Below are positions 17,428-36,125 of a stretch of 36,125 bases of DNA, in pieces. The notes below the pieces were generated by a model. That model saw nothing but the letters and a program-made list of their open reading frames with translations, did not search any database and had not been told where the DNA came from. A program made the translations under genes and the position numbers. Numbering within the stretch: position 1 is the first letter of the stretch; each line of letters begins with the position of its first letter. This DNA comes from Candidatus Liptonbacteria bacterium. GTDB taxonomy: Bacteria > Patescibacteriota > Minisyncoccia > UBA6257 > 2-01-FULL-56-20. The stretch covers positions 1 through 36,125 of the forward strand of contig JACQKW010000006.1 of the NCBI GenBank assembly GCA_016204385.1, in the 5' to 3' direction.

Positions 17428-17464
17428 ACCTGCCCGACTTGCTTGAGAAGCAACTCAGGCGGGT
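17428..17464. repeat. GC-rich palindromic element (same family as the leuS insert)
   Basis: ACCTGCC/GGCGGGT outer stem and TTGCTT/AAGCAA inner stem; left half CCTGCCCGACTTGCTT is 14/16 identical to leuS CCCGCCCGCCTTGCTT. Confidence 0.65.
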
Positions 17465-17573
17465 GGGCAAATGCACGCGAATGACGCCAATAAAATGTCG
17501 TATGATAATGTGGTAGGGATGGTTCTCTATTCGCAACATTCGCGCGTATTCGCGTATTAGCGCCGCGTTGTCT

Positions 17574-33914: not shown

Positions 33915-36125
33915 ATGAAATACAACCCCAAGAAGATTGAGCCGAGGTGGCAAAAAAAATGGCTTGAAGAGAAAATCTACGAGCCCGATTTAGAAAAGGC
34001 CGAGAGACCTTTTTACAACCTCATGATGTTCCCGTACCCCTCGGCCGAGGGGCTCCATGTCGGGAACATGTATGCGTTTACGGGCTCGGACATTTACGGA
34101 AGGTTTAAGCGGATGCAGGGGTATGACGTATTTGAGCCCATTGGCTTGGACGGCTTCGGCATTCACGCGGAAAATTATGCGCTTAAGATCAAAAAAAATC
34201 CGGCCGAGCAGGCGAAAATCTCGGAAAAAAATTTCTACCGCCAGCTTCGGGCGTTAGGGAATGGCTTTGCGTGGGACGAAAAGCTCGAGACCTACGACCC
34301 CGACTATTACAAATGGACGCAGTGGATTTTTACAGAAATGTTCAGGCGCGGGCTCGCGTACCGAAAAAAGCAGGCGGTCAATTGGTGCCCTTCATGCAAA
34401 ACCGTACTTGCAGATGAGCAAGTGGTACAGAAGCAAATAGCAAATAGCAAAGGGCAAATAGCAAAAACCGGAGTATGTGAACGATGCGAAACACCAGTTG
34501 TGAAAAGAGAACTCGAACAATGGTTTTTTAGGATTACCGACTACGCCGAGCGCCTCCTCAAAGATTTAGGCGGACTTGACTGGTCGGAAAAAGTGAAAGT
34601 TGCCCAGCGGAATTGGATAGGAAAATCGGAGGGGGCGTTGATTAAGTTTGAAGTTAGATGTCAGAAGTTGGACGTGAGAAGCGGCATGCATATCGAAGTG
34701 TTTACCACGCGGCCGGACACGTTGTTTGGCGCGGCGTACGTGGTGCTCGCTCCCGAGAATCCGCTGATTACCGCATTAGAACTTGAAATTAAAAACTTTC
34801 CGGAAGTCATCCGCTACATTAAAAAAGCGCGGGCAAAAAAGGGTGACGAACGACTCGCGCTTGGCAAAGTGAAAACCGGCGTTGAGCTGAAGGGTATAAA
34901 AGCGATAAATCCCGCGAGCAAAGAAGAAATTCCGATTTGGGTTGCGGATTATGTATTGGGTAACGTGGGTACGGGGGCGATTATGGCAGTCCCCGCGCAC
35001 GACGAGAGGGATTTTGAGTTTGCGAAAAGGCATGCATTGCCGATCCGCCAGGTTATTGCTCCAAAATTTTCCGAACCGGGTAATCCTCCTCGCCCGGGCA
35101 AACGAACAATTCGTCGCCGGACGGTTCACTCGATCGTGAGGAGGGTAAAAGACAATAAGATTCTTATGTTGCAGTGGAAGGGCAAAATGTGGGGGAAAAA
35201 TCCGCCTCGCACTTTTATCATTGGCGGCATTGAAGAGGGGGAAGACGTCGTGAAATCCGCCAGGAGAGAAATATACGAAGAAACCGGGTATAAAAACCTG
35301 CGATTCGTGAGACGATTAGATCTCGAAGTTCATACAGAATATTTTGCCGCGCACAAAGATGAAAATCGTTATGCAGAAATTAATGTCCTTTATTTTGAAT
35401 TAGGTTCTGATGAGCATGATAAGGTTTCGCCTGAAGAACTGCAGAAGCACGAACCGATTTGGATAGACGAGGGGAAAGTCGGTTCATTCGTGAATGTCGT
35501 TGACGGACCGTTCATTTGGAATTGGTTCAAATCCGGCGGCGGCGCGTATGCGGGAAACGGCGTATTGATAAACTCGGAAAAGTTCAGCGGACAGGACTCT
35601 GAAAACGCCACATTGGAAATCACGAAATTCGTGAAGGGCGAGCGGAAGGTGCAGTACCGTCTGCGGGATTGGCTGATTTCGCGGCAGAGATATTGGGGTC
35701 CTCCGATCCCGATGATTTTCTGCGAAGCGTGCTTCGCGGCGAAAAAAGGAGAACGAAAGGAAATGCCCGGCTGGTATGCGGTTCCGGAGAAGGGTCTGCC
35801 CGTCGCGCTCCCGAAAATAAAAGATTTCCGGCCGAAAGGAAAAGGGGTGTCGCCGCTTGCGACGGAGAAATCGTTCTACGAAGTGAAATGCCCTTCGTGC
35901 GGCGGGAAGGCGCGGCGTGAGACGGACGTCTCAGACACCTTTTTGGATTCGGCGTGGTACTACATCGCCTATCTGGCGCAAATCGCAAATCGCCCGCCCG
36001 CCTTGCTTCGCAACGCGAAGCGGGCAGGCAAATCGCAAATCGCAAATCCATTTTCTAATCCGCGGATTAGAAAATGGCTACCCATTGATATGTATATCGG
36101 CGGCGCGGAGCACTCCGTACTGCAC
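33915..36125 (+). CDS. leuS: Leucine--tRNA ligase with inserted Nudix domain, 3'-truncated by the window (absent from the ORF track)
   Basis: Hand translation: MFPYPS...GLHVGN, YKWTQW, WCPSC, FTTRPDT, GTGAIMAVPAHDERD, DWLISRQRYWG, DTFLDSAWY, YIGGAEH; Nudix box at 35223-35291. Confidence 0.96.
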   Translation, partial: MKYNPKKIEPRWQKKWLEEKIYEPDLEKAERPFYNLMMFPYPSAEGLHVGNMYAFTGSDIYGRFKRMQGYDVFEPIGLDGFGIHAENYALKIKKNPAEQAKISEKNFYRQLRALGNGFAWDEKLETYDPDYYKWTQWIFTEMFRRGLAYRKKQAVNWCPSCKTVLADEQVVQKQIANSKGQIAKTGVCERCETPVVKRELEQWFFRITDYAERLLKDLGGLDWSEKVKVAQRNWIGKSEGALIKFEVRCQKLDVRSGMHIEVFTTRPDTLFGAAYVVLAPENPLITALELEIKNFPEVIRYIKKARAKKGDERLALGKVKTGVELKGIKAINPASKEEIPIWVADYVLGNVGTGAIMAVPAHDERDFEFAKRHALPIRQVIAPKFSEPGNPPRPGKRTIRRRTVHSIVRRVKDNKILMLQWKGKMWGKNPPRTFIIGGIEEGEDVVKSARREIYEETGYKNLRFVRRLDLEVHTEYFAAHKDENRYAEINVLYFELGSDEHDKVSPEELQKHEPIWIDEGKVGSFVNVVDGPFIWNWFKSGGGAYAGNGVLINSEKFSGQDSENATLEITKFVKGERKVQYRLRDWLISRQRYWGPPIPMIFCEACFAAKKGERKEMPGWYAVPEKGLPVALPKIKDFRPKGKGVSPLATEKSFYEVKCPSCGGKARRETDVSDTFLDSAWYYIAYLAQIANRPPALLRNAKRAGKSQIANPFSNPRIRKWLPIDMYIGGAEHSVLH
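34432..34466. repeat. In-frame period-7 repeat inside the leuS Zn knuckle
   Basis: AGCAAAT AGCAAAT AGCAAAG GGCAAAT AGCAAAA. Confidence 0.85.
35978..36048. repeat. GCAAATC heptamer array interrupted by a 36-bp hairpin element, in frame in leuS
   Basis: (GCAAATC)x2, insert 35992-36027 with GCTTCGC/GCGAAGC stem, (GCAAATC)x3. Confidence 0.9.

Follow-up and report, generated by a model that had tools for sequence, protein, structure and literature searches.

Short hairpin-forming repeats that settle inside tandem arrays or inside protein genes are known from a few bacterial groups, and two of these systems come closest to the locus considered here. The SDR4-6 repeats of Nostocaceae cyanobacteria, attributed to Elhai et al. 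in 2008, are reportedly hairpin-forming dispersed repeats of 21-27 nt that are nested in heptameric STRR arrays. The Rickettsia palindromic elements (RPE), said to have been described by Ogata et al. in 2000, are ~100-150 bp long, comprise the families RPE-1 to RPE-8, are restricted to Rickettsia and are not tied to heptamer arrays. A locus that recalls both systems is found in leuS, the gene for leucyl-tRNA synthetase (LeuRS), at the end of contig JACQKW010000006.1 (C10) of assembly GCA_016204385.1 from Candidatus Liptonbacteria bacterium, a member of the Patescibacteria, or candidate phyla radiation (CPR). The whole contig, 36,125 nt long, was analysed and is termed the window. Within leuS, a 36-nt GC-rich hairpin separates the second and third units of a heptamer array, and the locus is probably a layered stack of DNA-level repeats in a length-variable LeuRS loop, translated through, in which the hairpin acts as a tiny mobile element.

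The leuS open reading frame (ORF; 33915-36125, + strand) spans 737 codons and remains open at the 3' contig end. Its product matches Thermus thermophilus LeuRS (1H3N) at E = 1.5e-152 and carries the precomputed Pfam domains PF00133, PF09334, PF13603 and PF00293. The repeat composite at 35978-36048 reads GCAAATC GCAAATC, then GCCCGCCCGCCTTGCTTCGCAACGCGAAGCGGGCAG, then GCAAATC GCAAATC GCAAATC, and the layout of (GCAAATC)x2, a 36-nt GC hairpin and (GCAAATC)x3 proposed in an earlier, sequence-only reading of this DNA is exact by Tandem Repeats Finder (TRF), a repeat finder and ORF translation. Units 1-2 (35978-35991, + strand) and units 3-5 (36028-36048, + strand) form arrays that are both 100% perfect by TRF and the repeat finder. 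The hairpin lies at their boundary at 35992-36027 (+ strand), a placement equivalent to the family register 35993-36028 (CCCGCCCGCCTTGCTTCGCAACGCGAAGCGGGCAGG) because the boundary G is ambiguous. Folded as single-stranded DNA, it reaches -13.4 kcal/mol (z = -3.2), and 0/200 shuffles fold as well. Rfam covariance models gave no match at E <= 1 across 35700-36125.

The composite encodes AQIANRPPALLRNAKRAGKSQIAN, flanked by DSAWYYIAYL and PFSNPRIRKWLPIDMYIGGAEH, within the leuS translation ...DSAWYYIAYLAQIANRPPALLRNAKRAGKSQIANPFSNPRIRKWLPIDMYIGGAEHSVLH. The hairpin itself is read as (R)PPALLRNAKRAG, and the peptides predicted across the insert are AGKSQIANPFSNPR and IANRPPALLR; the insert would be translated as part of LeuRS. 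The length of the 71-nt composite is itself not divisible by 3; the 36 nt of the insert are, as the sequence-only reading had claimed, and add 12 codons with the frame intact. The net extra length is 51 nt relative to LeuRS proteins with a 36-aa loop segment and 36 nt relative to those with a 41-aa segment. Two features had escaped the sequence-only reading, namely a 30-nt palindrome at 36048-36077 and the truncation of leuS, whose contig ends 48 nt past the repeats (counted from the palindrome end at 36077). The missing 3' half of the gene is absent from every contig of the assembly, which comprises 605 kb in 15 contigs and is ~80% complete.

The insert is delimited by comparison with LeuRS orthologues, for which the DSxWYY...YIGG segment was gathered from 40 related genomes, 54 metagenome loci and 120 protein homologues. 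Of 70 orthologue loci, 49 have a segment of 36 aa and 10 one of 40-41 aa; the 120 homologues include 48 with 36 aa and 23 with 41 aa, and the longest segments in their tail reach 61 aa. The window segment has 53 aa, that is, 41 + 12. Where the 36-aa class has six codons, the 40-41-aa class has about five 7-nt units, e.g., (CAATTTC)x4-5 in locus L024, AAATTCN x5 in L014, GGAATTN x4 in L032 and AAACTCG-type units in L034. The five-unit patch of the window is orthologous to those of the 41-aa-loop LeuRS genes L116, L034, L024, L014 and L026. The best comparator, L116 (protein P0046), is 72% identical to the window LeuRS over 521 aligned residues and has the loop DSAWYYIAYLA-KILNPKPEILN-PFSNPLVRKW. 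When exactly 36 nt are removed from the window, (GCAAATC)x5 is restored and aligns with the L116 loop without a gap over 123/123 nt; the core AAATC is kept in every heptamer unit, and no target-site duplication is apparent at the hairpin in this alignment. Thus, the heptamer patch appears to be old and orthologous, and the hairpin to have been added later where units 2 and 3 meet. The claim that the hairpin is nested in the array as an insert is borne out in this form, with the insert delimited to 36 nt against the 41-aa class, and the alignments support the hairpin as a putative insertion relative to orthologues with a five-heptamer patch; the direction of the event, gain and not loss, is the one that parsimony across the orthologues would favour.

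Further LeuRS comparisons place the extra residues in a variable region. The closest LeuRS relative, from genome G016 (identical in metagenome locus L031), has CAAAAAT x2, then the 39-nt CCCGCCTTCTCCGCCAGCTGGCGGATTCGGACGGGCAGG, then degenerate heptamers, which is the same layout in the same place but with a different member of the hairpin family. In an alignment with T. thermophilus LeuRS, the extra residues fall into a gap between R518 and L519. The AlphaFold model of the 737-residue fragment has a predicted local distance difference test (pLDDT) score below 50 for residues 689-710. As a separate observation on LeuRS genes of this group, G030:C20:5038-5460, from a genome placed in the same order, is a LeuRS match with 5 in-frame TGA codons, and a second aminoacyl-tRNA synthetase match in that genome has 3, which would point to either a TGA-recoded genetic code or wrong placement of that genome.

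The hairpin is not confined to leuS or to this genome. When one genome of each GTDB species was scanned, 19 loci with the exact 36-mer came to light in 13 genomes other than that of the window; it is absent from viral contigs. Depositors label these genomes as Paceibacterota, Jacksonbacteria, Komeilibacteria, Parcubacteria, Saccharibacteria or unclassified Patescibacteria; 12/13 are labelled Patescibacteria and one bin is labelled Gammaproteobacteria. About half of the copies (~10/20) reside within heptamer arrays, the unit of which differs: CAAATTC in L102, L103, L105 and L111, AGAATTA in L109, and AATAACC-type units around four Jacksonbacteria copies. The left flank is two units in 7/10 heptamer-flanked copies and the right flank 1-3 units, mostly 2-3; in the copies inspected, the forward strand of the hairpin is the A-rich strand of the array. 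Other exact copies, at L098, L099, L108 and L113, occupy the loop of a further GC stem. The recognisable hosts elsewhere are TsaD, RNase HII, ThrRS, IleRS, AspRS and glutamate dehydrogenase, among which the 36-mer is read in 3 frames. Neither the 36-mer nor GCAAATC has a stop codon in any of six frames by direct translation. Since the identical 36-mer sits in CAAATTC, AGAATTA, AATAACC and GCAAATC arrays, and since hairpin-free heptamer arrays are far more numerous, the hairpin is a repeat family separate from the heptamers, in agreement with the two families distinguished by the sequence-only reading. The heptamers are its preferred context and not its exclusive one. At one of these loci, L105 (RNase HII, MAG H43-bin210_1), the exact 36-mer in its CAAATTC array is accompanied by an ANRKSQIANRS stretch near the N-terminus; this stretch resembles the product of a GCAAATC-type patch, a peptide-level match, and different heptamer patches may coexist in this one small gene.

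A broader family surrounds the exact 36-mer, with the pattern CCCGCCYGCC...CGGGCAGG, in which the ends are conserved and the inner stems vary. The expression CC[CT][GA]CC[CT]G[CA]C...[CT]GGGC[AG]GG is matched at 12 loci of the 605-kb genome, and single hairpins of the family are 27-54 nt long, most commonly 39 nt. Inspection of the spanning ORFs identifies LeuRS, IleRS, AlaRS, Fmt, UvrC, MurC and TrmD as hosts, and further sites lie directly upstream of GatB and of a membrane protein. Together with ThrRS, AspRS, TsaD and RNase HII from the exact-copy genomes, these seven hosts agree with the earlier claim that both repeats are tolerated in essential genes. The single-hairpin length is divisible by 3 in every coding copy examined and in 22/23 family members overall. 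The family DNA is read in different frames, as PARL...KSGR, RPPA...RAG and ARPTG, and is thus a DNA-level repeat and not a protein module. At 5/12 family loci, the surrounding tract has a period-7 self-identity higher than the 99th percentile for 20,000 random positions; the AlaRS copy is embedded in GAYGTTG units and not in GCAAATC. The strict pattern is found in 7/41 related genomes, the window genome included, and the same pattern read backwards as a control has 0 matches. In G018, the identical 36-mer occurs at an unrelated locus, within a terminator-like stem after a TsaD-like ORF, and in G014 a 42-nt copy in GpmI differs by 1 nt from the MurC copy of the window genome (G000).

The window holds a second family member, a 39-nt copy (CCCACCCGCC...CGGGCAGG) at 17429-17467 on the - strand. 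Composite forms of the family also occur. In IleRS (C8:150715-150817, - strand), GCAAATA GCAAATG is followed by a family hairpin of 54 nt, by 21 nt that partly repeat its right end (TCGCAACGCGAAGCGGGCAGG) and by GCAAATG GCAAATC, and a comparable composite resides in Fmt (C9:1749-1880). At L090 (G018:C26:17447-17560), at least 3 copies of a 39-nt family hairpin (CCCGCCTGCCATCGCTACGTTCAGGCGTTAGCGGGCAGG) are joined head to tail with no spacers.

The heptamers form an abundant background of their own. TRF reports 69 period-7 arrays genome-wide; 31 have at least 3.5 copies, against 0.2 in composition-matched shuffles, and no other period is represented above 5. GCAAATN arrays of at least 2 units number 12 in the genome versus ~0.6 in shuffles. 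The lengths of the 31 arrays cluster at 26-37 nt, with two outliers of 47-48 nt, and 17/31 lie well within long ORFs (three in ValRS, two in IleRS, two in Fmt, and others in LeuRS, UvrC and TrmD). The window leuS has a second patch, (AGCAAAT)x4.9 at 34432-34465 (+ strand), which encodes KQIANSKGQIAK. This patch is in the zinc-binding hairpin, in an alignment gap between E173 and G174 of T. thermophilus LeuRS, and is without counterpart in that protein or in the consensus of 60 homologues. In L035 and L041, decayed and non-repetitive versions of the patch keep the same length.

Directly after the array, at 36048-36077 (+ strand), lies the perfect, loop-less 30-nt palindrome noted above (CCATTTTCTAATCCG/CGGATTAGAAAATGG; z = -6.1). 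Its codons, PFSNPRIRKW, are homologous to the conserved subfamily motif PFSNP(L/S)(V/I)(K/R)KW, and the palindrome is therefore not an insertion. The equivalent 30 nt of L116 have 11-nt arms (CCATTTTCTAA / TTAGAAAATGG) around an 8-nt loop and are identical to the window at 27/30 nt, whereas DNA identity in the preceding 180 nt is 65%. The window palindrome owes its perfection to three base changes (TTGG to CGGA), which cost an L-to-R and a V-to-I substitution. A third inserted element was considered and rejected for this sequence, which is of native length and matches L116 at those 27 positions. The palindrome would instead represent an old DNA-level hairpin that was later perfected, a change of the kind made by template switching at quasi-palindromes.

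Other palindromes of the genome were recorded alongside. About 20 further loop-less perfect palindromes with arms of at least 13 nt are present, versus none in three shuffles. A genome-wide family of loop-less perfect palindromes, with examples at C6:69888, C8:4663, C14:13119, C14:30480, C7:109726 and C7:109795, is 28-42 nt long with AT-rich arms and a AATTCGCGCGAATT-type centre, and two 44-nt palindromes have TGTTTCCATTATAAA in common. Contig C6 opens with a perfect 142-nt palindrome (C6:1-142), half of which matches the end of contig C7 (C7:109795-109991); the assembler probably folded back at a palindrome here, in which case C7 and C6 are adjacent.

Compared with described systems, the element works like the cyanobacterial SDR-in-STRR repeats and the RPE and is a member of neither, as size and host differ. 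The SDR and the CPR hairpin are both tiny, hairpin-forming and dispersed, lie inside tandem 7-nt arrays without target duplication (in 5/12 genomic and ~10/20 exact copies for the CPR hairpin) and are present at some orthologous sites but absent at others. By description, however, they are set apart by length (21-27 nt versus 36 nt, with a family range of 27-54 nt), by host (cyanobacteria versus Patescibacteria) and presumably by sequence. Unlike SDR, the CPR hairpin is mostly in frame inside essential protein-coding genes, at a fixed offset in a capped five-unit patch, and its exact 36-mer is common to distantly related lineages. The likeness to RPE, which the sequence-only reading had invoked, is that of a palindromic segment inserted in frame in housekeeping protein genes, presumably translated as an extra surface segment, and tolerated; the host ORF is preserved in all seven genomic hosts of the family listed above and, elsewhere, in TsaD, RNase HII, ThrRS, AspRS and glutamate dehydrogenase. 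That part of the comparison stands, but the CPR hairpin is 3-4 times smaller, has no sequence relationship to RPE and has a CPR host, so that membership in RPE is rejected and the comparison is one of analogy.

More distant systems share single traits. Mobile GC clusters, or double-hairpin elements, are known from fungal mitochondrial genomes and are likewise tiny GC-rich hairpins in an AT-richer context, with in-frame coding sites and mutual nesting; unlike the CPR hairpin, they are organellar and of other sequence, and they are not known to be associated with heptamer arrays. A miniature inverted-repeat transposable element (MITE), which has terminal inverted repeats and a target-site duplication and derives from a parent IS element, is rejected: the CPR hairpin consists of one hairpin from end to end, lacks a target duplication, and a search of the genome gave no parent element. 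REP/REPIN sequences are extragenic, have a GTAG head, occur in hundreds of copies and are mobilised by a co-occurring RAYT transposase (PMC3116915). Like the CPR hairpin, they are short (20-40 nt), imperfect GC-rich palindromes that are dispersed, sometimes in doublets, and presumed non-autonomous. Unlike REP, the CPR hairpin is mostly intragenic, has ~12 copies per genome and has no GTAG, the 5' flanks being AAATCG, AATTCG, ACGTTG and similar. Membership in the REP/REPIN-RAYT group is rejected, as most copies are in long ORFs and the ~80%-complete genome has no PF01797 gene. Heptanucleotide simple sequence repeats (SSRs) are over-represented in bacteria, as noted in PMC4692102, and the CPR arrays share this excess of 7-nt tandem repeats over other unit sizes. 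Unlike SSRs in general, the CPR arrays are capped at ~five units, are mostly intragenic and serve as host site for a second repeat. Full-text literature searches yielded no published description of in-frame heptamer or hairpin repeats in CPR bacteria.

The stack is proposed to have formed in layers. A five-unit 35-nt patch, (GCAAATC)x5, would be the local version of the patch typical of the 41-aa class of CPR LeuRS. The 36-nt family hairpin would then have entered exactly where unit 2 meets unit 3, with no target-site duplication, next to an ancestral hairpin over the PFSNP..RKW codons that was perfected to the 30-nt palindrome. The hairpin may be a very small non-autonomous mobile, or copy-pasted, element with a preferred target, the heptamer tract, which it would enter at a constant distance, two units in from the left edge, the A-rich strand carrying its forward strand; alternative landing sites would be loops within other GC stems. 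Heptamer tracts and hairpin loops are both candidates for sites prone to single-strandedness or slippage, where the hairpin could be copied. The favoured route is insertion of the hairpin, in single-stranded form, where a heptamer tract has slipped or unwound, with a trans-acting enzyme or replication/repair as the putative agent. Selection would retain only those copies that are stop-free, 3n long, polar-coding and in tolerant loops. Persistence of the hairpin in essential genes is attributed to these properties, as it is stop-free in six frames and 3n long, the loops accept extra residues and the sense strand codes for polar or small residues.

Several observations weigh against this proposal of a mobile hairpin. 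No Y1/RAYT transposase (PF01797) was matched in the ~80%-complete genome of the window, where the controls responded. No family hairpin lies within 600 nt of five small GIY-YIG nuclease genes in the genome, and these genes are rejected as partner on present evidence. About half of the exact copies are outside heptamer tracts. The terms parasite and landing pad used in the sequence-only reading imply mobility, a probable property that is deduced from the distribution of the copies. The 36/36 identity across deep lineages could reflect conserved function and not recent movement. The low pLDDT at the insert favours the proposal but extends over the entire truncated C-terminal end, so that the model is weakly informative and the structural argument weak. 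GTDB representatives, 5.8 billion proteins and metagenome contigs yielded nothing closely related to the host, with LeuRS matches of 66-72% identity at best; what serves as the 'empty site' is therefore no allele but the orthologue of a different genus. A strain-level empty site was likewise absent from the 40 GTDB relatives, which include no same-genus genome, and from the same proteins and contigs, and relatives of the RNase HII host L105, sought for an empty site around its exact copy, gave nothing above 67% identity.

The alternative that comes nearest to accounting for the arrangement regards hairpin and heptamers as one composite element, the flanking heptamers being terminal repeats, or repeated 7-bp target duplications or footprints. 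The position of the hairpin is fixed at two units from the left edge and 2-3 from the right, always at unit boundaries, and AT-rich heptamer-like flanks accompany many family copies, as such an element would have it. A composite is nonetheless improbable: four different heptamer units flank the identical 36-mer; the copies at L098, L099, L108, L113 and L110 have no heptamers at all; orthologous LeuRS loops have five-unit patches without a hairpin; and only ~5 hairpin loci are in period-7 tracts despite the 31 arrays of at least 3.5 copies. Moreover, the loop exceeds the patch-only length by exactly 36 nt, so that a 7-nt duplication would not fit. A different view, that the extra peptide is a selected functional extension of the LeuRS loop and the DNA repeats are incidental, can point to the segment exceeding 36 aa in over half of the 120 CPR homologues and to a frame that is always preserved. 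Against such selection, the same DNA gives PARLASQREAGR, PPALLRNAKRAG and RPPCFATRSGQ in different proteins, in three frames; the DNA is 36/36 identical, whereas identity between the host proteins does not exceed 72%; loop sequences are wholly different between lineages; and model confidence is low for the segment. This makes a functional extension very unlikely.

An assembly or binning artefact has to be considered as well, since the contig ends so soon after the repeats with the remainder of leuS missing, and since another contig of the assembly, C6, opens with a palindrome of the fold-back-artefact type. The frame, however, is intact on both sides and runs into the conserved LPIDMYIGGAEHSVLH, the closest relative shows the same architecture in each of two independent records (L002 and L031), and the identical hairpin occurs in 13 independently assembled genomes from several studies, so that an artefact is scarcely credible. 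Equally hard to credit is a phase-variation (contingency) switch, in which slippage by one unit of the heptamer tract would toggle leuS and the hairpin would modulate slippage. Such a switch would draw on a 7-nt unit that is not a multiple of 3 and on five perfect units that are slippage-prone, and heptanucleotide SSRs drive phase variation in some pathogens (PMC8262952). But leuS is single-copy and essential, the patches occur in many essential genes and are capped at ~five units across genera and not variable, and decayed non-repetitive patches of the same length persist in L035 and L041. The layered stack in which a hairpin is nested in an orthologous heptamer patch remains the supported reading of the leuS locus.

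Beside the repeats, the window LeuRS has a complete NUDIX hydrolase domain inserted at 35097-35549 (~aa 395-545), after the editing domain, with the box GGIEEGEDVVKSARREIYEETGY and a pLDDT above 95 in the AlphaFold model. The corresponding PF00293 is recurrent in many CPR LeuRS homologues, while others have the alpha/beta-hydrolase domains PF00561, PF12146 or PF06821 instead.

A broader proposal, tentative and rather less likely than the reading of the single locus, is that Patescibacteria harbour a previously undescribed class of ultra-small (27-54 nt) mobile hairpins, which trans-acting machinery would put into five-unit heptamer patches, at a fixed offset and without target duplication, and into hairpin loops. 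That machinery, or a system linked to it, might also write or maintain the patches, much of the loop-length evolution in essential CPR proteins might stem from the two together, and the 36/36 identity across classes would then signify ongoing horizontal spread or strict recognition. As a practical matter, the exact 36-mer is a simple searchable marker for the family across metagenomes, and could help in the search for a co-occurring enzyme. The repeats explain loop-length differences and odd low-complexity peptides (e.g., QIANRKSQIAN, PARL...GR and RPPAL...RAG) in CPR housekeeping proteins such as the aminoacyl-tRNA synthetases, and such peptides can confuse annotation, alignment and phylogeny. 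If truly mobile, the hairpin would be among the smallest mobile DNA elements known, and its target rule, a fixed offset in a 7-nt patch with no duplication, would be one unseen in the described families compared here. It would then point to a novel mechanism of insertion within a large sector of the bacterial tree that is still poorly understood.

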